IMG/VR virus record: IMGVR_UViG_3300012200_000001
Location: 13,863 to 77,862 of that record
Origin: a virus
Taxonomy: Duplodnaviria > Caudoviricetes
DNA: 64,000 bases
Strand: one strand, 5' to 3'
Under the pieces are notes generated by a model. That model was not told the origin of the DNA, ran no database searches, and saw only the letters and a list, made by a program, of their open reading frames with translations. Below are positions 11,521 through 55,359 of this stretch, piece after piece. The stretch's first letter is position 1. Each line of letters opens with the position of its first letter. The position numbers were made by a program, and so were the translations under genes.

Positions 11521-13107
11521 TTGGTATGGAGTTCTAACGTGAGCTACGTCACCTACCTCCGCGACTCGCTCCGCAACTTTGTCACGGGACTAGGTCAGCT
11601 CGGCGTCGATCCGAACAAGAGCGTTGAATACATTCTCACGCTGTTGGATCGAAACACTCTCGAAAATATGTATCGCGGAGATTGGTTGGCTCGCAAGATA
11701 GTCGAAGCGCCAGCCGAAGACATGACGCGCGAGTGGCGCGCCTGGCAAGCAAACCAGCAGCAGATTGAGGCGCTGGAGTTGGTTGAGAAGACCCTGGATC
11801 TTCAGCGCAAGGTCAAGCAATGGATCAGCAAAGCTAGATTGTACGGAGGCTCGGCACTCGTCATTGGCGTGGACGACGGTAATGATCCTAGCCAACCGCT
11901 TGATCTAGAAAAGTGCAGCAAGGATTGTCTGAAGTACGTGGTGGTGCTGCACCGCTTCGAACTCAATGCTGGTCCGCGCATCTACAACGTGATGGATCCC
12001 TACTACACGCGACCGGCCTATTACACCGTTGCGACGCCGATGTTTGGTTTTGAGGGCGGATCGGGGACGACGACGCCGTCGGTACGTGGACAGCCCGAGC
12101 AAGTGCCGGGTGCGGTCAATCCGGTCAAGAGCTTTTTCAGTAATGTGATTCCGTTTAGTAAAGGCCGACAACAAGAGCTAAGCACGATCCCCACAAACAT
12201 GGGCATGACACAGATTCATCCCAGCCGCGTGCTCGAGCTTCCTGGCAATGAGCTACCCGACTGGCGGCTTGCTCCGCTCGGCGGCGGCTGGGGCGATAGC
12301 GTGTTGCAGACCGTGGTCGATACGGTCAACAGTTTCACGGGCAGCATTCAATCCATTGCTGCAATGGTTAACGACGGCAAGATGGATGTTGTCAAAATCC
12401 CAAACATGGCGCTGAGCCTGATATCACCGGAATATAAGAACAAGATGCTTGATCGGTTCACTCTGTCGGCTCAGACCAAGAGTGCACTTTCCGTGCTGAT
12501 ATTGGACAAGGAGGAGGAGTGGGACCGGATACAGACCAATTATAGTGGCCTGCCGATGATCTTGCATGAGTTCATCACTCTCATCAGCGGTGCGGCCAGT
12601 ATTCCGGTTAGTCGTTTGTTCGGCACGGCATCGGGCATGGGATTGCAGGGCGGCAGTACGAGCGGCGGGCCGGACGATGTGCGCAACTATTACGATGATT
12701 GCGTGAACAAGCAGAAGAACGAGATCGCGCCGCGCCTCGCAATGCTCGACCAGGTGATGATGCGCAGTGCGCTCGGTAAGGCCGATCCTAACATTCACTA
12801 CGAATGGAATCCGCTGTGGCAACTCAGCGAAGGCGACAAGGCCAAGATCGGGCTTGAGAAGGCGCAAGCGACGCAAGTTTATGCAACCATTGGCATCATT
12901 AACGCGGATGCCTTCCGTGAAGGCGTGGTCAATCAGCTGATCGAGGATGGGACCTATCCGGGGCTCGACGATGCCATTGAAAAATATGGATCGGAACCAG
13001 AGGAAGGCGACGATACTGGAGGCTATCAACCCAGTGGCGAGCCCGCGCCCGATGCGAGTGGCGGAGGGAGTCCGGAACCAGGGCGGTTCAACTGGAAAGC
13101 ATCATGA
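11521..13107 (+). CDS. Portal protein (DUF1073-type)
   Basis: RDSLRNFVTGLG, YRGDWLARKIVEAPAEDMTREW, ARLYGGSALV, AASIPVSRLFG, NYYD. First gene of the head cluster. Confidence 0.92.
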   Translation: MVWSSNVSYVTYLRDSLRNFVTGLGQLGVDPNKSVEYILTLLDRNTLENMYRGDWLARKIVEAPAEDMTREWRAWQANQQQIEALELVEKTLDLQRKVKQWISKARLYGGSALVIGVDDGNDPSQPLDLEKCSKDCLKYVVVLHRFELNAGPRIYNVMDPYYTRPAYYTVATPMFGFEGGSGTTTPSVRGQPEQVPGAVNPVKSFFSNVIPFSKGRQQELSTIPTNMGMTQIHPSRVLELPGNELPDWRLAPLGGGWGDSVLQTVVDTVNSFTGSIQSIAAMVNDGKMDVVKIPNMALSLISPEYKNKMLDRFTLSAQTKSALSVLILDKEEEWDRIQTNYSGLPMILHEFITLISGAASIPVSRLFGTASGMGLQGGSTSGGPDDVRNYYDDCVNKQKNEIAPRLAMLDQVMMRSALGKADPNIHYEWNPLWQLSEGDKAKIGLEKAQATQVYATIGIINADAFREGVVNQLIEDGTYPGLDDAIEKYGSEPEEGDDTGGYQPSGEPAPDASGGGSPEPGRFNWKAS

Positions 13108-15098
13108 CGCTTGCTCTCAGCCTCTGCGGGCCCCACCGTGCTCTGCCCACGCATGCAGAGCTGCAGGATGCACGGGCTGGGAAAGACCCGACCAAGACGT
13201 ATTACCTACGCGCGCGCATGCGAGCGGAAGGTGACCGGCGCTGGCAGACGTTGGCGCAGACGGTGCGTCAGGCGTTGATCGAGCACGATCTCATAGGAAT
13301 GCGCGGTATCGGTCGGCTCCCATATGCCGACAAGGCCGAGGGCTTTGCGGCGTGGCTGCGTGAGGAGCTGCGGCACAAAGTATTCGGCTTGGACGGCCGT
13401 TGGCTCAGACCGTACGTGCAGCAGGCGGCCGTGATCGCACAGAAGCATGTGAACCAGTTAGCTCCTGGTGGGAAAGTTGACTCGACTCGAGTCGCTACCA
13501 TGGAGAACTTTGCAGTCAGCGAGCTACGCGGCATCTGTGAGGCGGCGCAGCAGCAGATGATCCGGGTCGTGACGCATTCGATCATGGCCAACGATACGCC
13601 GACGCAAGCGGCCAATGCGCTATCCGGCGTGATCAAGACCATGCGCAATCGCACGCGCGCTATGAGCGAGTATGTGATCGCCAAGACCCATGGCACTTGC
13701 ACGCTCAGCGCATTCCGTGATGCCGGAGTGCAGCAGGTTGGGATCATTCCCGAGCGATTGCGCAAGCGGCGTGTTGTGCAGGGTCCGCACGGTAAGACGC
13801 TCGTGAGCGATTGGCTACGTAGCCATTCATCTCGCGTAACTTTCTTCACTCACGAACGTGACATAAAAAAGTTACGTTCAGACAACCGCACGCAATCAAG
13901 GGACGCCAAGCAACCTGTCGGTGGCCCCGGCTCCCGTGTTAGCAGGACCGAGACGCCGTCGGCCGCCACGATTGCGCGTATCGAAAGGGCACAGGAGAAG
14001 ATCGAAGAGGTCGAGGGGATAGGGGGCGTCGAGGTGGTCACGGCGGGCGACGAGGACGTGTGCGTCATCTGCGAAGATATAAGCGACGAGGGCCCTTACG
14101 ATCTCGATACGGCGGAGTCGCTGATACCAGCCCACGCATGGTGCCGATGTAGCTTTTACCCTGCCGGTGAAACGACGGATGCGCTTTGGGATTGGGATCC
14201 GGAGCAGCATCCACGCGGCAAGACGTCAGAGCAATCGACAGGTGGAAGCTTTGCTCCTGGTGAATTACCGCTTTCGGGCGGTGGGGAACCAGAGCCGGGA
14301 AAGAACCGCTTTATCGAGGCGCTCGAGTCTGGCGAAGAAAAAATAGGCCAGACGTGGATGCAGCGCGGATCAACGCGAGATGTACAAAAGCTTGCGCGCG
14401 ATGCGGTCGTCAGCGTTGGTGATGATAATTTCGAAACCGCAGTCATTGTTGGCGAGCATCGTCCCGACGGGACACTTGTCGGAGCTGCCCCGGCGGGGGG
14501 TGCTCATAGTGTTGGTGTGTCGCCGAAACTGATAGCCAAATTCGGGGTGCATGAGCTGCATCATAATCATCCGTCACCATTACCTGTTTCCGGCCCGGAT
14601 ATCAGCTTGCTCAATCGACGTCCCGGGGAGTTGGCGGTGTGGGCGCACACCGATGACGCCTCGTCGAAGGCTAGCATCCCTGGCCGTGATGCCGAGCATC
14701 CAAACATGTCGATTGTCGGGGATGCCGATCCCAATGTTTATACATTGCGGGAGCCAAAGCCGACTGAAGCCTTCGATAGGTTCTTGATGGAATATCACGA
14801 CGAGGTTGGCAACGAAGCTGGAAACACCTTGCAGCGCCTTCAATACCAGCTGCGTAGAGAATTCGCAGACGAAAAGGAATTGGAGAGCGCCAACCGTTTT
14901 GTGCTCTATCATCCGCTGGTGCAAGGGCTGGTGAATGCGGGCCTGGTCAAGCATGATTATCAACCCGGGGCATTCGAGCGCGGGCTTTTGCGCAAACACG
15001 GTCGTGCCATCAAGCGGATCACCGAGATCGCTGACCGGGCCATGGCCGACGGAATCAAACGCCACAACCTGCATATCGCCGATGTTGGTCTCAATTGA
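13104..15098 (+). CDS. MuF (gp7-like) head morphogenesis protein with C-terminal JAB/MPN-like domain
   Basis: MuF Zn motif TAGDEDVCVIC...PAHAWCRC, then linker WDWDPEQHPRG, then E...HNHPSPLPVSGPD. Confidence 0.85.
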   Translation: MTLALSLCGPHRALPTHAELQDARAGKDPTKTYYLRARMRAEGDRRWQTLAQTVRQALIEHDLIGMRGIGRLPYADKAEGFAAWLREELRHKVFGLDGRWLRPYVQQAAVIAQKHVNQLAPGGKVDSTRVATMENFAVSELRGICEAAQQQMIRVVTHSIMANDTPTQAANALSGVIKTMRNRTRAMSEYVIAKTHGTCTLSAFRDAGVQQVGIIPERLRKRRVVQGPHGKTLVSDWLRSHSSRVTFFTHERDIKKLRSDNRTQSRDAKQPVGGPGSRVSRTETPSAATIARIERAQEKIEEVEGIGGVEVVTAGDEDVCVICEDISDEGPYDLDTAESLIPAHAWCRCSFYPAGETTDALWDWDPEQHPRGKTSEQSTGGSFAPGELPLSGGGEPEPGKNRFIEALESGEEKIGQTWMQRGSTRDVQKLARDAVVSVGDDNFETAVIVGEHRPDGTLVGAAPAGGAHSVGVSPKLIAKFGVHELHHNHPSPLPVSGPDISLLNRRPGELAVWAHTDDASSKASIPGRDAEHPNMSIVGDADPNVYTLREPKPTEAFDRFLMEYHDEVGNEAGNTLQRLQYQLRREFADEKELESANRFVLYHPLVQGLVNAGLVKHDYQPGAFERGLLRKHGRAIKRITEIADRAMADGIKRHNLHIADVGLN

Positions 15099-18000
15099 TC
15101 CGCCGGGATTGTTTGCAAAACCAGCACAGTGGCAGAGCTTTGTCGCTGATATGGAGCAGCGGCTAGCTGAGGGCCACGAGGATGCAAGGCCGTGGCTCGA
15201 ATGGGGGCGCAAGCATCTCGGCACGCATGACTTCGATCCTGACCAGCCGCGCGACCCGCAGGGTAAATGGACTGGCACGGGAGGAGGGACTCCGGCCTAT
15301 CATGGTTCGCCGTATGCCTTTTCCGAATTTGCGAGCAAGGTTGGCAGCGGTGAGGGCACGGATGCCTTCGGCCACGGGCTGTACTTTTCCGAGAACCGCG
15401 CGGTCGCCGAGCATTACCGGCGCGCGCTGAGCGGGCTGCGCGGGCAACCGGCGGGCGGCGTGCTGTACGAGGTCGATCTCGACGTCGAGCGCAGCAAGCT
15501 GCTTGACTGGGACAAGCCGCTAAGCCAGCAGCCGGAAATCTCCAAAATCCTGCGCGATCAAATTGGAACGGCGGCGACGCCGTTCAGCGGCGAAACGAAC
15601 AAGGATATTGCCGACCTGTTGCGTAAGGATGCGAAGGGCGAGGCGATCATGGAGAGGGTCAGCGGCTCCCCGCAAGGCGTTCTGCACAAGCTGAAGGAGG
15701 GCAGCGATGCGCTGCATGAGATCGGCATTCAGGGCGTGAAATATCTCGACAAGCGTTCGCGGGCAAAGGGTGAGGGTACGAGCAATTACGTCGTGTTTGA
15801 TCCGAAGCGCGTCCACATCGTGCATGCCCACCAGTTTGCAGATGCTGCGAAGAAGGGCATCAGGGTCTTCTTCATGGGGCTGGGGCATCCGCATCAACAG
15901 CCAGCAGGCGGCGGAGACGCCTATGACGATGATCGGGCACGCTACGATCCTGGTGAAATCAGCGTGCATGGTGGTGAGTTTGCACCGGAAGGCGGTGCGG
16001 TTGGCGGGCCTGATTACGAACCAGGCGGCGTCAAGTATGAGGAAGGTCGGCGGCTTACCAGCAATTACATCGCCCGCGAAGCCTCTGGCTATAAGCCCAA
16101 CTCACGTAAAGTGCCGGACGTTGCGCAGGAATTGAATGGCCGTGCGCAGAAAATTCTTCAGCAGGAAGTTAATGTCAAAGAAATCACGCGGGAGAACGCT
16201 ACTCCGCAGCTTGAGAATTACATCGCTAAGACGTTGGCTATGGAGCTGAAGGACGGGTTGCGCAACGGTCATTCGACGGAGACGTGGTACAGCGACAAGA
16301 TGCAGCGAACGATGCAGATTGCATCAAAGCTGCATCCCGAAATCAGCGCCGATCCAGGTAAACGGTTTGCGTTCATTGCTGCGCTTAGCATTGTTAGCCA
16401 GGGCGAGCGTGTTAACCGAGCCGGACGAAATGCCGATGAGGCATACACGCGCTTCAACAAAGACGGGAAATTTCCGACCGATATCAAGGTTGCTGATCCG
16501 AACATCACCGGCAATTTTCAGAAGATGAATAAGCTGATTGCTCGCTTTGGCCTCGAAGGCACCAAGAAAATTTTTGATACCCAGTACACCAATCGTGATC
16601 TGCTTGAGGCGACTGGCTATAAAGTTGGCAAGACCAACATGGATGACAAGGTCTATGGGTCTGCTGTGTTGGGCCCGAAGATCGGACAGGGCTTTTATCA
16701 GAATCTGAATGGCAACTTTGACCCGCTCACGATGGATATGTGGTTCATGCGTTCGTGGGGGCGTCTCACTGGCACTGGTATTGGCCATACCGACATGAAC
16801 GAGCAGCGCGACAAGCTGCGAACCGAGCTGAAGCGCAAAGGCAAAGCAGCGCCGTCAAGCATGGAGAGGCTTCTGGGCATTGCACAGAAAACAATAGATG
16901 TGCATGAGGCTGACTATAAAGAAACACGTAGACCGAAGACTCCGCTCGAACATGCCGCGGAGCGTTTTGTCTACAACTACAGTGGGGCGATGGTCGAAGC
17001 ACCGAAGGGTGGCAATGATCGTATTTGGATTACATCGGTCTTCGATAAAGCGCTTAATCTCTTGCATAAGGAAGGAACTCATCTTACGCGCGCGTCTGGG
17101 CAAGCTACGTGGTGGACGCCTGAGCAAGGACTGTACAAACGTCTTGGTGCGCGCGTCCCTCAATACGACACTGACTATGCTAAAGTGTTTGAGAGGATCG
17201 CCAGGGAAAAGGGCGTGACCGTGGATGCGAAAATGACACTCGAGTTCGCGCCGTGGATCGATGATCCCGATTCGCCTGATAACATGACCGAAGCTGAAAT
17301 GGATCGCATGGTCGAGGGCTTTGTCCATCTTCAAAGTAAAGCAGCAAGAGACTATGACCCGGATCAGCCGCGCGTACCAAAGGGTTCGGGCGAGGGTAGC
17401 GGAGAGTGGACAGCAGCCGGTGGCGGCGGTGGCTTTGAGTTTGTCTCGCCCAATATTGAGCACACCGGTTTCGAAGGTGCCCTACGTGGGCTGACCGGTG
17501 ATCGACAGCGGGCCTTGCGCCTAGCGGCGACCGAGATCGATGGCACTCTCGGCCTCGACAGTGTCCACACCAACATTGTGGGAGCCTGGTCCGATGGTGC
17601 CGAGAACTCGATCCTGAGCGAGGTGGAAAATCCGGACTGGGACAAGCTCAAGCTCAGCGGTGCAATGAAGGGTTATCTGGCCGACCAGAAGTCGGTCCTG
17701 TTGTTCAAGCAGGACGACAAGGGTAAGGCGGTCCTTTACAAGTGGGCGATGCCTGGTACGCTCGAGAGTGCCCACAGGGAGTTGATGCAGGCTGGTATTA
17801 CGGACCACACCTTGCAGAAACAGACATCTGGCGTTACGGCATATGTAGTTGATCGAGACGGAAAATTGCATGACAAAATCGCCCACGCCTCCTCCGGGGC
17901 AGACGTCGAATACCAGTTCGGACGCGCAGAATTTATCGGAACTACAAAAGACGACGGAACCGACCGCCAGCAGCGAGACGACGCGCGAAGAGCTTATGCG

Positions 18001-18489
18001 GAAATTATCAAGCAATCCCCGATTCAAAATGGCACGGAAGTCTGGGACCGGGTTCACAATCGGTGGGGTGAAGCGCTAAATCCCAAGAGCGGCAAGGTCA
18101 TTCAGATCGGCCGCAATCAGCCGTTTGAGGTGATGATCAATCCGAGTGAACGTGACTTGCGTAGCATGGTGCGCGAGTCTTCGGATCAAGAGATTCGTGT
18201 TTTACTCGATAAAGACAACAATCTATTTGCTTGGGATGCGCGGCATGCAATTCACGCTTCCGTTGAGGATGAACTACAGCTTAAGGCCAAGGAGTGGGAT
18301 AATTGGATTTTACATCGCGGTAAGTTGGTGTCTGGACGCTATTTTCGCCCTAATCCAAATATTTCCGAGGATGTTCAGCGACGTCATTTGCGTCAGGGAG
18401 AGACCGAGGTTCGTAGTTGGTTAAAACAAGTTCCGGCAATCGCCGCGTTCAATACAGCGCTTAGGGATGCGTCAGCTTCGATGATATGA
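15082..18489 (+). CDS. Large polyvalent head-associated protein: ART-like + HhH-glycosylase-like + two unknown domains
   Basis: YHGS...GHGLYF...LYEV...NYVVFDP; GPKIG...LTMDMWFMR; three DPDQPR-type linkers. Start reassigned to ATG 15082, which overlaps the MuF stop. Confidence 0.8.
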   Translation: MLVSIDPPGLFAKPAQWQSFVADMEQRLAEGHEDARPWLEWGRKHLGTHDFDPDQPRDPQGKWTGTGGGTPAYHGSPYAFSEFASKVGSGEGTDAFGHGLYFSENRAVAEHYRRALSGLRGQPAGGVLYEVDLDVERSKLLDWDKPLSQQPEISKILRDQIGTAATPFSGETNKDIADLLRKDAKGEAIMERVSGSPQGVLHKLKEGSDALHEIGIQGVKYLDKRSRAKGEGTSNYVVFDPKRVHIVHAHQFADAAKKGIRVFFMGLGHPHQQPAGGGDAYDDDRARYDPGEISVHGGEFAPEGGAVGGPDYEPGGVKYEEGRRLTSNYIAREASGYKPNSRKVPDVAQELNGRAQKILQQEVNVKEITRENATPQLENYIAKTLAMELKDGLRNGHSTETWYSDKMQRTMQIASKLHPEISADPGKRFAFIAALSIVSQGERVNRAGRNADEAYTRFNKDGKFPTDIKVADPNITGNFQKMNKLIARFGLEGTKKIFDTQYTNRDLLEATGYKVGKTNMDDKVYGSAVLGPKIGQGFYQNLNGNFDPLTMDMWFMRSWGRLTGTGIGHTDMNEQRDKLRTELKRKGKAAPSSMERLLGIAQKTIDVHEADYKETRRPKTPLEHAAERFVYNYSGAMVEAPKGGNDRIWITSVFDKALNLLHKEGTHLTRASGQATWWTPEQGLYKRLGARVPQYDTDYAKVFERIAREKGVTVDAKMTLEFAPWIDDPDSPDNMTEAEMDRMVEGFVHLQSKAARDYDPDQPRVPKGSGEGSGEWTAAGGGGGFEFVSPNIEHTGFEGALRGLTGDRQRALRLAATEIDGTLGLDSVHTNIVGAWSDGAENSILSEVENPDWDKLKLSGAMKGYLADQKSVLLFKQDDKGKAVLYKWAMPGTLESAHRELMQAGITDHTLQKQTSGVTAYVVDRDGKLHDKIAHASSGADVEYQFGRAEFIGTTKDDGTDRQQRDDARRAYAEIIKQSPIQNGTEVWDRVHNRWGEALNPKSGKVIQIGRNQPFEVMINPSERDLRSMVRESSDQEIRVLLDKDNNLFAWDARHAIHASVEDELQLKAKEWDNWILHRGKLVSGRYFRPNPNISEDVQRRHLRQGETEVRSWLKQVPAIAAFNTALRDASASMI

Positions 18490-18625
18490 CCGAAGGAGGG
18501 CGCGTTCAGGTTGAATGGGGGCTTCCTTAAAGACGCAAAGTCGAGTAATTACGATTTGATGCAGGGAATCGTTTCTGAGTCCGAGGCTGGCCGTCGGGGA
18601 GACACGTCGGCCACGGAGCAGATGA

Positions 18626-21600
18626 ATGCCTTACAAGGCAAGCCAGATCCCGAGCGGGACTGAGAAGGTTCCCAAGCACGGTCAGGCTATTTTCCGATCA
18701 GCATTCAATGCCGCCTTCGAGAAGTATGGCGAGGAGCGCGCGCACGCGATTGCGTGGTCGGCCGTTAAAGCAAAATATAAGAAGAAGGGCGACCGCTGGG
18801 TCAGCAAGGACGGATATGCCGTCATGCATCGGCTCGGGGACTACGACCCCGATCAGCCGCGCGTACCTGCCGGTGAATCAGGTGGCGGTCAGTGGGCTGG
18901 CGGCGGCGGTGGCCCCGCCGGTCGCGGCGAGCTGCATCTGACCAAGGCAGAAGGACTATCTGAAAAACCCGAGATCGCACGCACCTTTGGTTTTGGTCAG
19001 GGCATCGAAGGAATAAGCGGCGGGCTTGGAGGCGCTGAGGGAGAACTTGGTGCCGGGACATTCGGCAAAAGCGAACCTGCTGGTGGCGCGAAGGCCTCAC
19101 CCGGCGTTCCCAAGGAATTGGTGAAAGCCATTGAGGATCACGTCGGCGGGATGGGTGGTGAATTTGGCCAGCACGGCAGCGCCGATCTCACCAGGTGGCT
19201 GATGCTCGCGCGCAAAGACCAGATGCTCAAACTCATCGATGACATGCCAGCCAACAAGCGGCCAGCGCTGCTGCTGCACAAGGGTGATGAGAAGGCGGGC
19301 ATGCCGTCAGTATGGTTGTTGGGTTGGAGTGGGACCGAGCAGACGGACATCCACGATCATGTTCGTTCCGAAGTCGGCATTTCGGTGTTGCGCGGTAATA
19401 TTGCCAACGAATGGAATCATCCTCCTGCGGGCTATCTCGATGCCGCGAAGAGCCCTGACGGGCTGCGTATGCCGGTCAACAAGGACACGTTGCCCGAAGG
19501 CACAACTGTGCAGCTCGAGGCTCCGTATATCCACCTGATGCGCGGCACCGCGCCGTCGAAGGCGTCGGGAGAGCGCGACATTTCGGTGCATGCATATCAC
19601 CCGCCACTCAAGCAGATGCACTATTTCAAATCTCGAGGCGGTGCGCTGCATTACGACGGCGATTGGGATGAGGATCGCCCGCCGTCCGAATATTCGACTC
19701 GCGATTGTGCTTGCTGTTCGTTGCTTGACGAGGCGGCAGGCCATCCGTTCCGAGGTAACCAATATACGACGGGAGAGAGCGGCGGTGGCAATGGGCAACC
19801 AGCTGAGAGTACCGGTGAGCATGGTCAGAAGGTTAAGGCATTCCTCAGCTTATCGTCCGCTAAGTCGGTCATCAGAAGCGCAATCAATGAAACGATCAGG
19901 GCTGGAGAGCACATCGTAAAGCATGAATCCGAGATCGCCGTAACGAGCGGCATCCTCGCTGCCTTGACGGCGTTGGGTGCGCCATCGGTGCCAGCGGCAG
20001 TCTGTGCCACGATTGCTGGTTATGCGGTGCACCGCGTGGCCCATAGTCTTGGCATCGATGCCGGAGCTGCACACCGCTTATTGAAGGCCACGACCGGCGG
20101 GCTGCGGAATATGTCTGAACGAGCAAGGCGCTCTGGCATGCATGGCGGCGGCTTCCCCGAGCAGGCATTAGGTTTCGGCGATGCGGATGACGGTTCCGTC
20201 TCCCGGTCTTTGCGCTTGCTCGACGATGCATTGAATCGTCACACACTCGATGAGCTTGATAGATTTATCGAGGAGTACGAATCCGGCCGCTTCCATCGGG
20301 ATGAAGAGGCGGGTCATCCATTCCGCGGCAACCAGTACACCACGGGTGAAAGCGGTGGCGGAAAAGGCGAGGAGGGCGGCGGAGGGCGAGGCGGTGGTGG
20401 CGAGGAGGTCCATCCCGGGAAGGGCTACTCGAAGGAGGCCCGCGTTGACGAGAAAGGCGTCATCCATACCGAGAATGTTGATGATGCAGCGCGTGCGCTT
20501 ACCGAAGGGCGCAAGGTTGAACTGAATCAACCACGGCAAGTCTCAACCTTGCTCGACAAGCTTGGTGAGATAGCCAAAGCGGCGCTCGCTAAAGGCGAGA
20601 AGGCTCCAAATTTTAATTTGTGCGATGTGTCGGTAAAAGGCACCAACCTGTTCTGCGCGGAGACTAAAGGCTTCACGCGCATTGAGATGCCGCAGCTCGA
20701 GGATACCAAAGGTTTCCTCGATTACCTGAAGGCTCGAGGCCACACGGTAAAAGACGGCGAAGAATATGCGGCGCACTTGCGAGCAACACAGAACGAACTG
20801 AAGGGCGCGCAGGTCGCGGCCCTCGCCAATTTCATGGAGACCGGCATCGGTAAGGACGGCAAGGTCGACAAGGAAGCAGCCGCTAAGCTACAAGACCGGC
20901 CCATCGTTATTAGCAAGGACGATTACATTCTCGATGGCCACCATAGCTGGGCGGCAAAAATTGGCATGGACGCGCGCGACAACATCTTGGCTGACGACAA
21001 AAAGATGAATGTGCGCCGGGTCGACACCGACATCATCACATTGCTGTACGCCGCCGATGACTTCACCGGGGGTAAAGGGAAAAAAAGCGCAAAGGATCGC
21101 GCAAAGGATCGCGTCATGATGGACCAAAGGAAACAATGTCCCGGGTGTTACGGGAGCGGTTTGGACCTTGAAGGCGACCAGTGCGATGAATGCGACGGTA
21201 CTGGTTATATCGATAATGACGATGATGATGTTGAGGATGGCCGACGACGGCAGACAGATTCGATACATCTCATCGAGAACGCCGTATTTGTCCAAGATCG
21301 CGATGGCAAGATCGTACGCAAAACCAAGGATGGCTACCTCGTAGCGAATGCACGTATCGCTCGTACCGGCATTCAGCTCTACGACGGAGCAGAGATCGGT
21401 AAGCCCGACATGGGCGTGGTGCGGGTCTATCGACCGGAGAGCGAAGTCTTCAGCGCCAAGGCGATGCACAGCCTCGCGAACAAGCCGATCACGCTCAATC
21501 ATCCGCCGGTCATGGTGGATGCGAAGAATTGGGACGAATACGCGGTTGGTCACATAGGTGAGGAAGTCGCGCGCGATGGTGATTCGGTGCGCGTGCCGCT

Positions 21601-22531: not shown

Positions 22532-23014
22532 ATGTTGACTCCGGCCCCCGTTCAAACCGACTACATTCGCTATCAACTTCCCGCCCAAAACGGGATGCTT
22601 GCTAGCTCGATCAACTACTCGGCGGACACGCGGATTGTAGAGGTCGTCAGTGGCGGTGCCACTGCTATCCCGTTTGGTCGCGCCGTCAGTCAAGGCGTAA
22701 AACCCAAAGGCTGCCACCTCGGCGGCACCGCCTTTGTGGGCCTTTCCCGCGCTGATCCGACGGTCGCTCGCTCGGAGACTCTTCCTATCGATGAGTATCC
22801 GGAGAACGACAACGCGGGCATCCTGGTGACCGGCGACCTGTGGGTCATCGTTGCCGGTGATGTGACTGCTGGCCAGTCGATCCATTACAACACAACCGAC
22901 GGCAAGCTTAGCGCCGCCGGTGGCACCGCCATCGACAGCTCACGCTGGATGACGACGGCTACATCTGGCCACCTCGCCGTCGCACGTCTCGGCAACATCG
23001 CTGGCAAAGCGTAA
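22532..23014 (+). CDS. Head decoration/cement protein
   Basis: Lies between protease and capsid. AIPFGRAV...GDLWV...AG..V.Y...DG.L pattern. Confidence 0.8.
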   Translation: MLTPAPVQTDYIRYQLPAQNGMLASSINYSADTRIVEVVSGGATAIPFGRAVSQGVKPKGCHLGGTAFVGLSRADPTVARSETLPIDEYPENDNAGILVTGDLWVIVAGDVTAGQSIHYNTTDGKLSAAGGTAIDSSRWMTTATSGHLAVARLGNIAGKA

Positions 23015-23035
23015 ACAGCGCTCAATACGGGAGAC

Positions 23036-24004
23036 ATGAATATGCGCCTTGATATCTACGACAACCCTCAACAGGCGCTCGGCTTCCTGTTGAGCCAGAC
23101 TGCTTTCATCGAGCAGGAAGTTTACCGGACGCAATACCCGGAAATAATTTATCAGCAGCTCATTCCTATCGACACCGCTGCTGGTGAGTGGGCCAAATCG
23201 GTCACCTACTTCAGCCTCGACCGGGTCGGTCAGGCTCAATGGCTGAGCAACGTAGCGACCGATATGCCGTACGCCGATGTCAATCGTAATAAGTACGAGC
23301 AAGGCATCGAGATGGCTGGCATTGGCTACACCTACACGCTCGAGGAGATCGGCCAGGCGTTGATGATTCCTGGTTTGAACCTCACCGGGGAGCGTGCCGA
23401 CGCAGCAAGATTCTCCTACGAAATGTTCATGGACAACCATGCGTATCGTGGAGATGCGACCAAGAACGTGACCGGATTGTTCAACAATCCGACCGTCACG
23501 GTGGTCACAGCGAAGACCGGTGCAGGAGGTTCGACGCACTGGTCGCTGAAGACGGCGGACGAGATCATCGGCGATGTGCAGGATGCTCTCACCGGCATTT
23601 ACGCAGGAAGCCTGACCGTTGAGATGGCGGACACGGTGTTGCTGCCAGTTGGCGAAATGCAGAAGCTCGCCAACATTCGCATCCCGAATACCTACGGCAA
23701 CGCACTCGACTATCTGGCTCGCTACAATCTCTACACGTTCAACACAGGTGCGCCGCTCACGATCCGCGGTGTGATTGGTCTCGACTCTGCGGGCGCAGAC
23801 GGTGGCGGACGCATGGTCGTATATCGGCGCGATCCGCGTGTGCTCAAGTTACACATTCCAATGCCGCACCGCTTCCTGCCGGTGTTCCAGCGTAGTGCGA
23901 TCCAGTTCGACATCCCTGGCATCTTCCGCGTTGGCTCCGTCGAGGTTCGGCGTCCGGGTGCCGTGCGGTATGTCGATGGCATCAGCGGTGTTGGGTCGCC
24001 CTAG
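23036..24004 (+). CDS. Major capsid protein (DUF2184-type, HK97 fold)
   Basis: GFLLSQTAFIE..VY..QYP, GYTYTLEE, TGLFNNP, RMVVYRRDP.VLKLHIPMP, EVRRPGA.RY.DGI. Confidence 0.92.
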   Translation: MNMRLDIYDNPQQALGFLLSQTAFIEQEVYRTQYPEIIYQQLIPIDTAAGEWAKSVTYFSLDRVGQAQWLSNVATDMPYADVNRNKYEQGIEMAGIGYTYTLEEIGQALMIPGLNLTGERADAARFSYEMFMDNHAYRGDATKNVTGLFNNPTVTVVTAKTGAGGSTHWSLKTADEIIGDVQDALTGIYAGSLTVEMADTVLLPVGEMQKLANIRIPNTYGNALDYLARYNLYTFNTGAPLTIRGVIGLDSAGADGGGRMVVYRRDPRVLKLHIPMPHRFLPVFQRSAIQFDIPGIFRVGSVEVRRPGAVRYVDGISGVGSP

Positions 24005-51727: not shown

Positions 51728-51993
51728 GCGTGCCCCGTCATATCCGGCTGGCCTTCGAAGCGCTTGATCTGCTCCTTGAATAACGTGACGACGTCGCGGC
51801 GATCAGCTCCGTTGCTGATGTAGTTGCAGCGACCTTCCTGCTCACCAAACGGAAAAACCAGCAGCACGAAGCCGACCTTGCGGTTGGTGCCCTTGGCTTT
51901 GCCGTTGAGGACATCATCCAGCACCCTGGCGAGGCTGTTCATCGTGCTCATGTATTCTGGTTCAATCGGTGCATCGCCTAGACGCTCTGTCAT
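51724..51993 (-). CDS. Conserved phage hypothetical protein
   Basis: GFVLLVFPFG...RCNYISN. Coupled to both neighbours. Confidence 0.75.
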   Translation of the reverse strand: MTERLGDAPIEPEYMSTMNSLARVLDDVLNGKAKGTNRKVGFVLLVFPFGEQEGRCNYISNGADRRDVVTLFKEQIKRFEGQPDMTGHA

Positions 51994-52388
51994 TGCTTGT
52001 ACCTTTCTTCATCGATCAGTCGCTTGGTCGTCGCCATGATGGCGCAGCTTCGGCAAAGGTGGCTGCCAGCTTTAAAGGGATGGCCCTCACAGAGTTGGCG
52101 CTCGCCAGCGCTCTCAGGATTGGATGGACGGACCGGCTGTATGTCCTGCGAGATGCAGTACAAGGCTATGCCCGGTACGTCCCGCCTGTTGAGGCGCTGG
52201 CAATCAGGGTCGTCGCAAGAGATCGCTTTGTCCGGCTCAATTCTGAGTAAGCCATAGCGCGCACGATAGTCTGGTTTGCTCAGCATGATGGTTGCCACGC
52301 GGACAGTATCGCGCCACTGCTTTGCAGTTACGCCATGGCAGTGCGAGTGCCTCATGCCCTTCTCGTCGGTGATATATCCTTCATTCAC
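51990..52388 (-). CDS. Hypothetical Cys/His-rich protein
   Basis: GTG start overlaps the HNH stop. Contains HSHC, C..PDC, C..H and C..C. Confidence 0.6.
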   Translation of the reverse strand: MNEGYITDEKGMRHSHCHGVTAKQWRDTVRVATIMLSKPDYRARYGLLRIEPDKAISCDDPDCQRLNRRDVPGIALYCISQDIQPVRPSNPESAGERQLCEGHPFKAGSHLCRSCAIMATTKRLIDEERYKQ

Positions 52389-52735
52389 CTCAACCTCCGT
52401 TTTGGCCAGCGTGATCGCCGCACCGGCTTCTCGCCCGTACTCTTGAGCAGCATACGTTGCGCGTGTGCATTGACCGCCATGCGAACGTGCCGCTCCTTCG
52501 CCATGTCGGCAGCGTCGTGCTTGGTCTTCCATTTATGATCGTGCCGCAGGAGCGGACGAAGATTCCAGTGCGTATCAGGGCCACCATCGGCCTTGCGGAT
52601 TGGATAATGGTCGTACTCAATCATGCCGATGATCTCGTCCTCGGACAGCTCCTTGGCGATCCTGTGGGGCAGCTCCAACCAGGCGACGATGGTGGCAGCA
52701 CGCAGCGTGCGCTCGGAAATGTGCTTCCTGGTCAC
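52385..52735 (-). CDS. HNH endonuclease
   Basis: EYDHYPIRKADGGPDTHWNLRPL...DHKWKT. GTG start at 52735 overlaps the upstream stop. Confidence 0.82.
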   Translation of the reverse strand: MTRKHISERTLRAATIVAWLELPHRIAKELSEDEIIGMIEYDHYPIRKADGGPDTHWNLRPLLRHDHKWKTKHDAADMAKERHVRMAVNAHAQRMLLKSTGEKPVRRSRWPKRRLR

Positions 52736-52926
52736 TCGACGACCTCGATGATTTTCTCCACGCATTCGTCGCAGAGCTGCACGCACGCGCCCTCGTCGGT
52801 CCACATCATTAACGGAGCTTCGCTGACGGGTCCGAAGCAATTTGAGCACAACGGCGCGATCCGCGAATCCGGGCGGCTCCAGGTGAGCTTGCTGACATCG
52901 AAATTAGGCTTGAACCGCAGGTGCAT
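52732..52926 (-). CDS. Small Zn-finger protein
   Basis: CSNC...CDEC. Confidence 0.65.
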   Translation of the reverse strand: MHLRFKPNFDVSKLTWSRPDSRIAPLCSNCFGPVSEAPLMMWTDEGACVQLCDECVEKIIEVVE

Positions 52927-52941
52927 TCAGGTCACGCGCTT

Positions 52942-53271
52942 TCATATGTCGCGCAGAAAAATCTTCAATGATTTCGGAACCGGGTCAGCTCGCCCAAGAT
53001 CACGCCACAACAATCGACAAGCTGCGGCATTGAGTTCGCTTGTCTTAAAGGCACGCTTCAAAATCCGATCATGCTCCAACAACCAGAAACGAAATGCCGG
53101 ATCATCGCCGAAATCGCGCCCATCATCCGCTATATATTTTGCTGCGAGTTTAGATGGCTGCCATTCAAAACCCGCGATCCGACACCCGCACGGCGTTTGC
53201 ACCGCGCAGCCGAGATCGTCCACCAATCGGTTGCCGTGATGACACAGCATCTCAGCAAAAGTGCACGCCAT
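52942..53271 (-). CDS. Hypothetical protein
   Basis: In-operon ORF. Confidence 0.6.
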   Translation of the reverse strand: MACTFAEMLCHHGNRLVDDLGCAVQTPCGCRIAGFEWQPSKLAAKYIADDGRDFGDDPAFRFWLLEHDRILKRAFKTSELNAAACRLLWRDLGRADPVPKSLKIFLRDI

Positions 53272-53274
53272 GTT

Positions 53275-53667
53275 TTAACGCTTCATCCGCTTCAAACGCC
53301 GGATACGCTGAAGCCGACCATGTGATATTTTCCGCGCCGTCTTCAGTTGACGTGACAGCTCAGCGATCTTTTCCTCTTTTTCTTTACGCTCATTCTGTTG
53401 CCAACCTCCCCAAACAAAATTGGTGAGAGACATGAGTGCGGCATCTATCGGTCGATAATGACTACAGGTGTGGTTGGTCCATACATCAACGTGAACCGGA
53501 TTTAGGGCGCAAAGACCCTCCTGGTTTTTGCCGCTAGCCTCGCACATCGTCTTGCGGACATCGTAGATGTCATAGTGGTCGCCTTCATAGCGCGGCTTCC
53601 AACCGTCTGGCGGGACCGGCTTGAAATAGTCGCACAGCAGGCAGGCACCTTTAGTCATCAGCGCCAT
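53275..53667 (-). CDS. Cys-cluster + coiled-coil hypothetical protein
   Basis: C..C..F...C......GLCAL.P...C pattern. Confidence 0.6.
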   Translation of the reverse strand: MALMTKGACLLCDYFKPVPPDGWKPRYEGDHYDIYDVRKTMCEASGKNQEGLCALNPVHVDVWTNHTCSHYRPIDAALMSLTNFVWGGWQQNERKEKEEKIAELSRQLKTARKISHGRLQRIRRLKRMKR

Positions 53668-53692
53668 TGGGGTATTAGGGTAACTTTGTCCG

Positions 53693-54013
53693 TTACCGAT
53701 TCCGGCCCTTGTTTTCTCTATGTTTTTTGACGCGCTCGGCGGTCTTGGAGCGTGCTTCTGTGAGGCTTTTGCCGCGCCCGATTTGGATCAACTCATTGGC
53801 GCGGCTACGGGAAATGCCGCATTCGGTTTTCACGAGTTCCTCCCATCCGGCGCGCCGATAGGCTAGACGCTCGAGGTGCTGTCCGGCGGCCCGCCAGAAG
53901 GCCTGCTCCGACCGGCCGGTGCCGCGCCGCCCGCGGGCGATGGCCACCATGGTCCTAATGCCTTGCACGTCATGGGCGTCCTGGTCGGGGCGGTCGTTGA
54001 GCCACCGCATCAA
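53693..54013 (-). CDS. Hypothetical protein, possible HTH DNA-binding
   Basis: W.E.VK.ECGISRSRANELIQI. Confidence 0.55.
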   Translation of the reverse strand: MMRWLNDRPDQDAHDVQGIRTMVAIARGRRGTGRSEQAFWRAAGQHLERLAYRRAGWEELVKTECGISRSRANELIQIGRGKSLTEARSKTAERVKKHRENKGRNR

Positions 54014-54020
54014 AAACCCC

Positions 54021-55118
54021 TTACTTCCGCTTCTTGGCCGTCCGCAGCTCCGCGATCCGGCTCAGGACCATACCTTCCAGGCGCTTACGCACGGAGAGCT
54101 GGACCTTGAGGTCCGCCCGCATCTCTTTTTCGCCATCCCAGCGGGCCTCGAGATCGTCAGGGTTGTTGACCTTTTCGATCCACCTAGCGGCGTAGGCCAT
54201 GTACTGATCGGCCGTTTCTGGGGGCTTGGGAGGCTCAGGAGCGGCTTGTTTGGGCTCGGGGATTGGCTGGGCCTGGGGTGTCTCTTCCGCCGCGTCCTGG
54301 GGCTTCTCTGCGGCCTTGCGGGTCTTCTTGGTGGCCTTGGCTTCCTGGGCTTGTTCCGCCTCCTTGGCGAGACCGGCATCGACCACGTCGGTCTGGAAGC
54401 CCGCACCCTCCATCTTCCCCGGCAAGCGCTGCATTAGATTGGGTGAGGGCGGGATGACATTGGTTTCGTCCTGGGTCGTTTCCGAAAATTCCTCACGGTC
54501 GTATACGCCACCGAGGAGTTCCGGGGCATGGCGGCGGCCGAAATTCCGAACGGCATAATAGCCAAGCTGCTGGTCAGCATCTTTCGTCCACAGCGGTGAA
54601 CCTTTCACCACGCCGTCTTGGTTCTTGGGAGGGCGGCACACTCGGATCGGCGGCGTCGTATATTCCACCGCCGTTGCCTCGCCCTTGAACGTCGCGGTGA
54701 CCGTGCAAACGCGTTCCTCGCCCTCTCCTGAGTAGCTGTACCGGGGCCGTTCCTTTAGGAGTCCGGAGCTGAGAAGGATCGCGGCATGGACGGCCGCATC
54801 GTAGGCGATCAACGATTCCGCTTTGGCAATATATGAATGTTGAGAAACCCAGTAAGGCTCCAGTCTCCATCGTAACGATTGCGTCACAATCGCCAAACAG
54901 TCACCGGGATTGCCTTTGAGATACGCAGGAACGGAATGCTTTGCCTGCGCCATCACCTTGGCGAACTCGACGCATTCTCGATACTCCGCGAACGTGAGGC
55001 CAGCCCATCGGTCGACGACCATGTCACCGACGCGCTTGCGCTCCAATGGGGCGTCAACGCGCGTGAGCTGCTGAGCCAGTGATGGCTCAATGACATCCTG
55101 TTCGGTGCTATTAGTCAT
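54021..55118 (-). CDS. recT: RecT-family single-strand annealing protein
   Basis: VP.YLKGNPGDCLAIV.Q..RW.LEPY.V.QHSY, SPLW..D.DQQL.YYA.R..GRRHAPELLGGVY. Near a RecE-like gene. Confidence 0.8.
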   Translation of the reverse strand: MTNSTEQDVIEPSLAQQLTRVDAPLERKRVGDMVVDRWAGLTFAEYRECVEFAKVMAQAKHSVPAYLKGNPGDCLAIVTQSLRWRLEPYWVSQHSYIAKAESLIAYDAAVHAAILLSSGLLKERPRYSYSGEGEERVCTVTATFKGEATAVEYTTPPIRVCRPPKNQDGVVKGSPLWTKDADQQLGYYAVRNFGRRHAPELLGGVYDREEFSETTQDETNVIPPSPNLMQRLPGKMEGAGFQTDVVDAGLAKEAEQAQEAKATKKTRKAAEKPQDAAEETPQAQPIPEPKQAAPEPPKPPETADQYMAYAARWIEKVNNPDDLEARWDGEKEMRADLKVQLSVRKRLEGMVLSRIAELRTAKKRK

Positions 55119-55134
55119 GTTGTTCTCCGTTGGA

Positions 55135-55359
55135 TTAGTGGGCGTGGTAAAGTGCGTCCTCCCAGAATCTCGGGTCTTGGTCGAGTTTCAGAAGGTCGAC
55201 CCAGTAGGGAAGGTCGCGGCCTAACGACAACTCGATCTCACCAGGATAACGTGGGGGGAAGACAATCGCCTTCACCGGCATGATCAGCTCGGCATGCACG
55301 ATGGCGGGTGCCGCAATTAACGACACAGCACCAAACAGGAATCGGCGACGGTCAATCAT
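55135..55359 (-). CDS. Small protein with twin-arginine (Tat)-like signal
   Basis: MIDRRRFLFGAVSLIAAPAIVHA. Confidence 0.65.
   Translation of the reverse strand: MIDRRRFLFGAVSLIAAPAIVHAELIMPVKAIVFPPRYPGEIELSLGRDLPYWVDLLKLDQDPRFWEDALYHAH

Follow-up and report, generated by a model that had tools for sequence, protein, structure and literature searches.

What is the role of the short peptides that recur at domain junctions in the head-gene cluster of this phage? In the window, by which we mean the whole 64,000-nucleotide stretch analysed from a phage contig of 77.9 kb, all seven such peptides lie within three consecutive head genes, P0001, P0002 and P0003 (every feature named here is on the + strand). 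These cargo genes are flanked by the portal gene upstream (Phage_portal_3/DUF1073, 11521..13107; Pfam E=3e-85, with a PHROG portal match) and by the cement and major capsid protein genes downstream (22532..24004; Pfam Phage_cement E=2e-23, Major_capside E=1e-78), and when the 77.9-kb genome was scanned in full in all six frames, neither motif was found outside the three genes. A preliminary description had listed the seven peptides as two families of linker that mark each cargo start, and all seven were recovered at their positions with the translations given there.

The three proteins are chains of modules. P0001 (13104..15098) consists of a MuF-like minor head protein, a linker and a C-terminal JAB-like cargo module. 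Residues 278-360 form the conserved MuF-like core (PHROG minor head protein/head morphogenesis, E about 5e-7), a call that comes from PHROG alone, as a Pfam search of this region returned no MuF match. The homologue in the related phage L029 is 352 aa long and stops at residue 360, where the P0001 linker begins; it lacks the C-terminal extension of about 280 aa past the core. Between MuF and the C-terminal module stands a divergent family-1-like header, WDWDPEQHPRG...GGSFA (14178..14255, from translation). Directly 3' lies P0002, another cargo polyprotein (15082..18489, from translation; database gene call P0178, 1135 aa). The longest open reading frame for P0002 starts at 14935, compared with the gene-call start of 15082. 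After a leader of about 48 aa come a family-1 header, DFDPDQPRDPQGKWT (15229..15273), then GTGGG and an ART-PolyVal module (residues 121-293; 29.1 bits, E=1.9e-6, just below the 31.2-bit cut-off), a degenerate junction peptide, DAYDDDRARYDPGEISVHGGEFA (15916..15984, from translation), an unknown module, a family-1 header of a long subtype, DYDPDQPRVPKGSGEGSGEWT (17350..17412), and a Gly run leading into a further unknown module, so that the chain holds ART-PolyVal plus at least two other modules.

P0003 (18626..22474; Pfam and PHROG domain matches) likewise joins at least two unrelated domains in one chain, namely ChaB, a cysteine-dioxygenase-like cupin, a ParB-like module, a zinc finger and DUF2213. 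Its N-terminal half runs from ChaB (Pfam, residues 12-61) through a family-1 header, DYDPDQPRVPAGESGGGQW (18839..18898), to an unknown module with the cupin (CDO_I, 223-336), a family-2 header, DEAAGHPFRGNQYTTGESGGG (19727..19789), and a hydrophobic module. The remainder comprises a second family-2 header, DEEAGHPFRGNQYTTGESGGG (20300..20362), the ParB-like module with a DnaJ-type zinc finger (DnaJ_CXXCXGXG, 815-860), and a DUF2213 head protease/scaffold (899-1060); PHROG matches are to head maturation protease (885-1278) and phrog_2859 (662-830). The headers in this phage connect cargo modules with each other and with two carriers of head assembly, MuF in P0001 and the DUF2213 protease/scaffold in P0003, and in P0002 a header sits after a short N-terminal leader. 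As the preliminary description had it, each copy is followed by a Gly-rich spacer and a new module. Its wider statement, that every cargo start is so marked, goes too far: module starts are tagged, but the N-terminal ChaB module of P0003 and the junction between its ParB-like/zinc-finger part and DUF2213 carry no tag.

To score the copies, we used profiles built solely from the copies of other phages, with the window left out. The family-1 profile gave 40.2 bits for the copy at 15229 (i-E 5e-12), 33.2 for that at 17350 and 29.1 for that at 18839, and the two family-2 copies at 19727 and 20300 scored 37.2 and 33.8 bits; any other open reading frame in the window reached at most 5.4 bits with the tag profiles. 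The copies at 14178 and 15916 gave no match with the family-1 profile. They have GG[SE]FAP in common, are positioned at domain junctions and resemble an intermediate subtype found in relatives (L029/L067: DYNPDQPRAASAPGHSSGEFA), and it is only plausible, through this intermediate form alone, that they belong to family 1.

Across phages, family 1 has the consensus D[FY]DPDQPR(D..G.W[TS] or VP.G...G.W[TA]) and family 2 (KGD or DE)..GH.F.GNQ[YWH]T. A header is a conserved peptide of about 12-20 residues followed by a Gly-rich spacer (glycine fraction 0.21 downstream of the header vs 0.06 upstream) and a domain-sized module. Headers are spaced a median of 212 aa apart and come within 40 aa of the C-terminus in only 3/350 proteins. 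For both motif alignments AlphaFold predicts coil (pLDDT 57-71), and the headers are accordingly predicted to be short disordered peptides.

Could such peptides simply be flexible linkers or recombination joints, kept by module exchange and with no function as peptides? The Gly-rich spacers would suit this, as would the way in which modules have been shuffled. Relatives L029 and L067 have the same modules as the window in permuted order with breakpoints at the motifs, and homology blocks between relatives begin or stop at tags. For example, the block common to P0003 and L029/L067 begins where the 19727 tag does, at residue 366-367; likewise, P0002 residues 833-960 align with residues 38-167 of L069, so that the module after the 17350 header is homologous to L069 from just past L069's own tag. 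However, the two family-2 copies of P0003 are identical at 20/21 residues although 15 of their 21 codon pairs differ synonymously (5 are identical and 1 is non-synonymous), and their longest exact DNA run is 5 nt. Their flanks are unrelated (1/40 and 3/40 residues identical). Across 268 family-2 copies every synonymous codon occurs at the H, F, G, N and Q positions, which stay invariant in hundreds of copies. Because so many codon differences are synonymous and so little DNA is shared, selection acts at the level of the peptide: the tag peptides are selected as protein, more strongly than the preliminary description had claimed. Module breakpoints do fall at tags, but its suggestion of recombination anchors is not supported at the DNA level: identity there (5 nt within the genome, and longest exact runs of 11-17 nt between genomes) is too low for homologous exchange, and the location of the breakpoints may simply reflect which chimaeras survive. 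Given this purifying selection, with synonymous sites saturated, we consider passive linkers highly improbable.

The relatives also connect the two families. At the ChaB junction, P0003 has a family-1 header (18839) and its relative L064 a family-2 header; at the junction orthologous to the family-2 header at 20300, L029 has a family-1 header, DFDPNEPRDPQGKWTTGGGG. Since close relatives have now one family and now the other at these two orthologous junctions, the two appear to be functionally equivalent.

Which proteins carry the headers more widely? At E<=1e-3, no fewer than 2,521 protein cluster representatives match family 2, and a single protein can hold as many as 9 copies. The exact pattern GHPFRGNQY was found in 117 IMG/VR stretches, where roughly 0.1 would be expected by chance, and in only 8 stretches in 596 Gb of cellular genomes. 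Tagged proteins are often fusions with MuF, portal or prohead-protease domains, or are encoded by separate genes adjoining those. The fused carriers are Phage_Mu_F, four portal families, Peptidase_S78 and XkdF proteases, DarA_N and DarA_C, and the cargo includes ADP-ribosyltransferases, PARP, ParB, Zeta toxin, 2H phosphoesterase, NUDIX, topoisomerase I, InPase, GNAT and pentapeptide repeats. Family-2 headers directly follow the MuF 'NCRC' end in L015, L018, L023 and L061, and are present in proteins of the DarA_N/DarA_C/InPase/SNF2 type and in the 'internal head protein' from GYRb1, a cultured Xanthomonas phage. Arrays of stand-alone tagged genes directly follow portal and XkdF protease genes (L022, L048), and among the nearest large neighbours of tagged open reading frames 39/95 encode portal, MuF, protease, capsid or terminase proteins. 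On these sequence grounds, both motifs are widespread module headers of head-associated cargo (polyvalent) proteins in many phages. The preliminary description had proposed asking whether profile hits are confined to head-cluster genes of DUF2213/DUF1073 phages; they prove specific to head-associated cargo proteins, but the carriers span several portal and protease families.

Neither family is covered by a Pfam or PHROG model or by any paper that we found. That at least 2,521 family-2 clusters stand against this absence from Pfam, PHROGs and the literature searched suggests a real annotation gap, and the headers look like an undescribed signal for capsid-carried proteins. We give about an even chance to the reading that both families are portable module headers of polyvalent cargo proteins that are internal to the capsid and ejected from it, and the putative function that we consider most likely is a loading and/or release signal for such cargo. 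A header would then be a sequence-specific signal read during cargo handling in the head, for docking and/or release ('address and cut here'). The chain would enter the prohead via its carrier domain or variable N-terminal leader, after which the conserved header would allow each module to be retained, detached or freed for ejection alongside the DNA. Given the header reading, a signal for loading or retention, with or without cleavage, comes somewhat short of an even chance, and a signal for cleavage only is appreciably less probable. Some of the matches in cellular genomes are DarA-like polyvalent proteins of integrated elements, whose association with virions is only putative, and this counts against capsid cargo. 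It also counts against this reading that a tag on every module is redundant as an address where the chain already has a carrier; where tags stand at internal junctions despite a MuF or DUF2213 carrier, a role in processing or handling explains them no less well than one as an address.

The headers might, on that point, be proteolytic processing sites and nothing else, the address residing wholly in carrier domains and leaders. Cuts at or near each header would yield single modules and remove the leader from stand-alone cargo. Candidates for the protease are the head protease (DUF2213/XkdF/S78), a cargo-borne peptidase and, once the cargo has been injected, a conserved protease of the host. Iyer et al. 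2017 (PMC5512222) predicted that polyvalent proteins are processed by peptidases of their own. Purifying selection acts on internal-junction tags even in chains with a carrier, direct fusions of cargo to prohead proteases are common, and the combination of variable leaders with a core that is universal among tagged proteins fits a division between address and cut site. On the other side, the motif has at least 12 constrained positions, far above known head-protease sites, such as the L/IxE of T4 gp21, and no L/IxE-type pattern is conserved in either motif. The motif is kept across unrelated protease families, and one junction can be served by two unrelated motif families. Moreover, the genome scan found no header in the capsid protein, the portal or the scaffold part of P0003; if headers are cut sites of the head protease, the protease would need other sites elsewhere. 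Taken together, we regard processing alone as unlikely, though as the strongest of these competing explanations.

The header core is conserved over phages with differing portal, protease and capsid families, which makes a phage-specific receptor or protease awkward. A slowly evolving universal partner would explain this near-invariance most easily, and such a partner could belong to the host, for example a conserved chaperone, protease, membrane or nucleic-acid machine that, after injection, refolds, activates, localises or releases each effector module. The headers, as predicted disordered short linear motifs of which each module has its own copy, would be suited to such binding. Yet neither header resembles a known host-binding motif, no candidate partner is known, one partner would have to fit two unrelated header families, and the association with head carriers and head genes is equally explained by the other readings; we think action in the host rather improbable. 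Breadth would also be accounted for by intrinsic chemistry that is independent of any single phage protein family, either self-cleavage (e.g. Asn-mediated at GN|Q) or a covalent tether of the Lys-Asn type to a capsid component. Family 2 does have invariant reactive side chains (His, Asn and Gln, with Lys/Asp in KGD), and there are precedents in asparagine-lyase cleavage and HK97-type isopeptide bonds. But the predicted coil offers no fold to place catalytic groups, and family 1 lacks those residues, has no conserved Asp-Pro, and nevertheless replaces family 2 at the same junctions, so we have very little expectation of such chemistry.

Returning to a signal read in the head, a bolder and distinctly tentative proposal is that the headers are a putative signal for 'capsid cargo' that is general among tailed phages, portable, and recognised by a conserved partner. 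If so, a single machinery would read both families, as these can stand in for each other at one junction, injected proteins would be recognisable by sequence alone across thousands of uncultured phages, and a 15-residue tag could load foreign proteins into capsids. Among the capsid-borne proteins that enter with the DNA are enzymes against restriction and other defences; such proteins can now be found only by virion proteomics. A header that marks modules would give a listing of candidate injected effectors in uncultured phages from sequence alone, would explain how capsid cargo proteins are built and reshuffled, and would provide a means to load phage particles with designed cargo.

How do the headers compare with known systems? 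The preliminary description had likened them to the T4 capsid-targeting sequence of IPI-III and Alt, which is also a short conserved peptide on unrelated, fast-evolving anti-defence proteins; the T4 proteins are loaded into the prohead core and then injected, and Alt is an ADP-ribosyltransferase (PMC3012670). That sequence, however, is strictly N-terminal, is cut by gp21 at L/IxE and occurs in T4-like phages alone. The headers have no sequence similarity to it and no recognisable protease site, are mostly internal and repeated, and are spread over phages with several portal and protease families. Here 6/7 copies are internal, and only the first copy of P0002, which follows some 48 aa after the called start, is close to an N-terminus; nor do the copies end in a prohead-protease motif shared with capsid or scaffold, as the motifs occur nowhere else in the genome. 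The likeness to T4 comes down to an analogy.

Similar in architecture are the phage-type polyvalent proteins of Iyer, Burroughs, Anand, de Souza and Aravind 2017 (PMC5512222), large multidomain proteins from phage head modules with ART-PolyVal, ParB-like, peptidase, MuF and other conflict domains, which were proposed to be packaged, injected and processed by peptidases. That paper describes no conserved junction peptides, and 'linker', 'glycine' and 'low-complexity' are absent from its text; the headers here are a punctuation common to polyvalent proteins that also heads stand-alone small genes. The Dar antirestriction proteins of phage P1 (DarA, DarB, Hdf) are head-internal and injected as well, and their incorporation is ordered via protein-protein dependencies, with no shared tag known (PMC5512222, PMC13478112). 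A match to P1 Hdf spans query residues 20-152 only, and the header, at about residue 216, lies outside it. MuF polymorphic toxins (Jamet et al. 2017, PMC5576092) combine an N-terminal MuF with a variable C-terminal effector, a layout that P0001 probably shares by its PHROG matches, and come with a cognate immunity gene downstream, in a temperate phage, whereas P0001 is directly followed by the cargo polyprotein P0002; their description includes no junction motif, and 'linker', 'motif', 'pre-toxin' and 'junction' are absent from its text. What differs here is that the same headers also join modules in chains with a portal, protease or DarA-type carrier and in proteins that have no carrier.

A further parallel is with the pre-toxin junction motifs of bacterial polymorphic toxins, such as VENN of CdiA and the Rhs PxxxxDPxGL, which are likewise short conserved peptides at the boundary of exchanged, and sometimes released, variable C-terminal modules. 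Each such toxin, a secreted bacterial protein, has a single pre-toxin motif, which in some cases lies inside a folded autoproteolytic domain, whereas the phage headers are predicted to be disordered, can number up to 9 in one chain and belong to putatively virion-associated proteins.

The tagged genes lie in the head module of a single-contig, 77.9-kb phage genome, 64 kb of which make up the window. In this module the portal gene (Phage_portal_3, 11521-13107) is followed by P0001 (13104-15098), which joins a MuF-like core, assigned by PHROG, to a C-terminal extension; by P0002, whose longest ORF spans 14935-18489 and whose database gene call, P0178 (1135 aa), begins at 15082; by P0003 (18626-22474); and by genes for a cement protein (22532-23014) and the major capsid protein (23036-24004). 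Pfam and PHROGs matches place a putative ADP-ribosyltransferase (ART-PolyVal) module at residues 121-293 of P0002 and, in P0003, a ChaB module (residues 12-61), a cysteine-dioxygenase-like cupin (223-336), a ParB-like region (phrog_2859, 662-830), a DnaJ-type zinc finger (815-860) and a DUF2213 head protease/scaffold domain (885-1278). The longest P0002 ORF has 164 nt in common with P0001 (14935-15098); the P0178 call shares 17 nt with the end of P0001, a hint of translational coupling. The C-terminal module of P0001 (14328-15098) had no Pfam match at E<=0.01; it carries an E...HHNHPSPLPVSGPD pattern resembling a JAB/MPN zinc site and may represent a head-borne peptidase. Residues ~389-558 of P0003 (19790-20299), between two family-2 headers, contain a long hydrophobic stretch, ITSGILAALTALGAPSVPAAVCATIAGYAV, which suggests a membrane-inserting ejection or pilot module.

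The preliminary description had quoted seven header peptides from these genes, assigning those at 14178, 15229, 15916, 17350 and 18839 to family 1 and those at 19727 and 20300 to family 2, and translation confirmed all of them. When scored with profiles made solely from other phages' copies, the headers at 15229, 17350 and 18839 reached 40.2, 33.2 and 29.1 bits for family 1, and those at 19727 and 20300 reached 37.2 and 33.8 bits for family 2. Nothing in the rest of the window scored above 5.4 bits with either profile, and a six-frame scan of the whole genome found no motif outside P0001, P0002 and P0003. Family-1 membership thus held for three of the five proposed copies, while those at 14178 and 15916 went undetected by the profile. 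Because these two copies have GG[SE]FAP in common and resemble a subtype at a module junction in close relatives (DYNPDQPRAASAPGHSSGEFA in L029), we regard them as plausible divergent members, not as established ones. As had been described, every copy leads into a Gly-rich stretch, behind which a new module begins. Untagged junctions also exist: neither the N-terminal ChaB module nor the junction between the zinc finger and DUF2213 carries a tag.

The two family-2 copies of the window are identical at 20 of 21 residues, yet only 5 of the 21 codons are the same, with 15 synonymous differences and 1 non-synonymous. They share no DNA run longer than 5 nt, and the flanking 40 residues on each side are unrelated. 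Since the codons diverge synonymously and the flanks are unrelated while the peptide is kept, selection acts on the peptide, in agreement with the earlier claim of conservation at the protein level. The same description had proposed that the linkers might double as recombination anchors. At the DNA level this was not supported: with no shared run beyond 5 nt, a DNA-level repeat or recombination site is rejected. In a comparison between genomes, a header of 22 identical residues matched at 55 of 66 nt, the exact runs reaching at most 11-17 nt, enough for microhomology only. Anchors acting through DNA homology and purely passive linkers are, of the explanations considered, the least likely.

Family 2 has the consensus KGD..GH.F[RH]GNQ[YWH]T ahead of a Gly-rich stretch, and its H, F, G, N and Q do not vary among 132 diverse copies; family 1 reads KD[FY][DNS]PDQ[PA]R, then D..G[RKQ]W[TS] or VP.G...GG.W[TS]. 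The exact back-translated pattern for GHPFRGNQY was found in 117 stretches of IMG/VR viral contigs, against a chance expectation of ~0.1 estimated from the information content of the pattern, and in just 8 stretches of a 596-Gb cellular genome collection; the family-1 pattern D[FY]DPDQPR[DV] occurs in 24 viral stretches. When 1.84 billion cluster representatives were searched exhaustively with the profile, 2,521 family-2 proteins were recovered at E<=1e-3 (508 at E<=1e-10), and a single protein can have as many as 9 headers; because single-copy proteins mostly score below significance, 2,521 is a lower bound. Word-indexed searches gave 280 family-2 and 166 family-1 proteins among 8,000 candidates scored. 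The few matches in cellular genomes fall in DarA_N/DarA_C/InPase/PBECR1/SNF2-type proteins and one portal C-terminal extension, and one lies beside an integrase; they may not all belong to prophages. On five cellular contigs (L144, L145, L142, L147, L148), integrated elements of Betaproteobacteria and Xanthomonadales carry a recurrent variant, EW.AMP..D....ALDGDF.GHPFRGNQYRKASR.SG.AV, after DarA_N-type domains; one copy adjoins an integrase.

Pooled over 350 retrieved proteins, the distance from header to header has a median of 212 aa (quartiles 162-297), which matches a domain in size. Among these proteins, 163 have their first header no more than 60 aa from the N-terminus, and just 3 have a header within 40 aa of the C-terminus. 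Glycine makes up a fraction of 0.21 of the 12 residues after the core and 0.06 before it (0.094 overall). Thus, by spacing, terminal position and glycine asymmetry, headers precede modules rather than trail them. In tandem small genes of uncultured phages (L009, L022, L028, L047, L048, L057, L068) the core lies ~20-40 residues into the gene, behind short leaders that belong to a few recurring classes, such as FTTNELLYPLTKGD and NPFS...L.P.W..A.EILKGD. Within the arrays at L009 3299-7677, L028 8670-12193, L047 7933-9246 and L068 6377-9064, each gene opens with a 10-25 aa leader and then the family-2 core; the leaders include at least four classes that reappear in different uncultured phages and coexist within one genome. 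Positions 1-45 of DUF5872 (SAVANGWVVQEYKRRGGTY...) make up a mini-module frequently located directly upstream of a family-2 header (L022 6040-6270; P0032, P0063 and P0027), and we rejected DUF5872 as a model of the tag since its matches are to this small upstream module.

Fusion partners of tagged proteins are Phage_Mu_F, four portal families (PF04860, PF06381, PF06074 and PF05136) and the prohead proteases Peptidase_S78 and XkdF. The MuF 'NCRC' end stands directly before a family-2 header in four loci (L015, L018, L023, L061), and in two others (L022, L048) arrays of tagged genes begin straight after a Mu-type portal and an XkdF protease fusion. Among the large untagged neighbours nearest to tagged ORFs, 39 of 95 matched portal, MuF, protease, capsid or terminase families. 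Behind the headers lie ADP-ribosyltransferases, PARP, ParB, Zeta toxin, 2H phosphoesterase, NUDIX, topoisomerase I, InPase, GNAT, pentapeptide repeats and PI3/4-kinase-like modules, which is the known polyvalent-protein repertoire. Restriction to one type of head cluster had been suggested as a check; the motif profiles do mark head-associated cargo proteins, but these are not confined to one portal, protease or capsid type. In the cultured Xanthomonas phage GYRb1 (PQ569993), a family-2 header occurs in a 1221-aa 'internal head protein' beside a DarA-like gene. The header reads ...DGDFSGHPFRGNQHRKGSR... (L149 ~19396); its gene (CDS 51801-55466) has DarA-like, metallopeptidase and SNF2-type ATPase genes adjoining, and GYRb1 is a possible experimental model.

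Comparing the three window proteins with ORFs of fetched loci by BLAST, and then reading the junctions, showed that headers coincide with the edges of shuffled blocks. The MuF homologue of L029 (352 aa) stops at P0001 residue 360, the exact start of the P0001 linker. P0003 residues 96-364 (a module of unknown type plus the cupin) and 366-828 (the hydrophobic and ParB-like modules) recur in L029 and L067 at 46-69% identity in reversed order, with block edges at headers. After the ChaB module the window has a family-1 header and L064 a family-2 header; before the ParB-like module the window has family 2 and L029 family 1 (DFDPNEPRDPQGKWTTGGGG). The DUF2213 proteins of the phages with exchanged headers are 53-58% identical. 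The two families are therefore interchangeable at orthologous junctions. No homology between them was detectable (profile-profile probability 11%, the sole alignment being an aromatic-Thr-Gly tail), and just 8 of the 350 proteins carry both.

These sequence comparisons show that the headers are selected as peptides, stand at the head of modules, are portable between carriers and are specific to cargo proteins associated with the head. AlphaFold predicts coil for both motif alignments (134 and 35 sequences) at pLDDT 57-71; the peptides behave as short linear motifs. No Pfam or PHROGs model covered either motif, and the PDB gave no family-2 match. For family 1 it gave one weak match (E=0.7), to a phage 7-7-1 baseplate protein: in PDB 9rku chain Af (baseplate core, PMC12796354), a 454-aa 'putative tail biosynthetic protein', a family-1-like core, QPRDASGRFAYSGGPGS, occupies residues 83-99. 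Searching cultured phages by tblastn with the bare peptides gave nothing usable; one match in Xanthomonas phage Elanor (E=9) was spurious, running across two small ORFs. Literature searches on the motif strings found nothing relevant, and the key polyvalent-protein and MuF-toxin papers do not mention junction motifs. Virion proteomics of phi24B shows that polyvalent proteins can be abundant in the capsid and yet not be seen in the reconstruction; neither motif was found in the phi24B protein, nor was a tag found in Sulfitobacter phage phiGT1, which has the ART module in its head cluster.

On our best reading, the headers would be a signal for cargo handling in the head, acting in loading or retention and/or in release. 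The odds that they form a universal capsid-loading signal are modest. An address role can be argued from the stand-alone tagged proteins, which have no other shared element and are located in head modules. A role in processing or handling can be argued as well: internal junctions keep the tag under selection despite the carrier domain, and cargo is often fused to a prohead protease. For either role, a phage-specific reader is argued against, since the same core occurs in phages that differ in portal, protease and capsid family, one junction can be served by either of two unrelated tags, and the capsid, portal and scaffold of the window phage carry no tags. A host-side partner and an intrinsic chemical role are therefore retained as less probable alternatives. 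Acid-labile Asp-Pro cleavage in family 1 was rejected because Asp-Pro is not conserved, and 2A-like ribosomal skipping, which is not known from bacteria, was rejected because it leaves the N-terminal tags of stand-alone proteins unexplained.

The tags had also been likened to the T4 capsid-targeting sequence. Position, sequence and protease-site ending each failed to agree, and the likeness is one of analogy only. By the definition of Iyer et al., 2017, the products of the three tagged genes would count as polyvalent proteins, and P0001 appears to be laid out like a MuF toxin. Another likeness is to the pre-toxin junction motifs of bacterial polymorphic toxins, since the headers, too, mark exchange points. 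What is new is the header itself, which is conserved, repeated and interchangeable.
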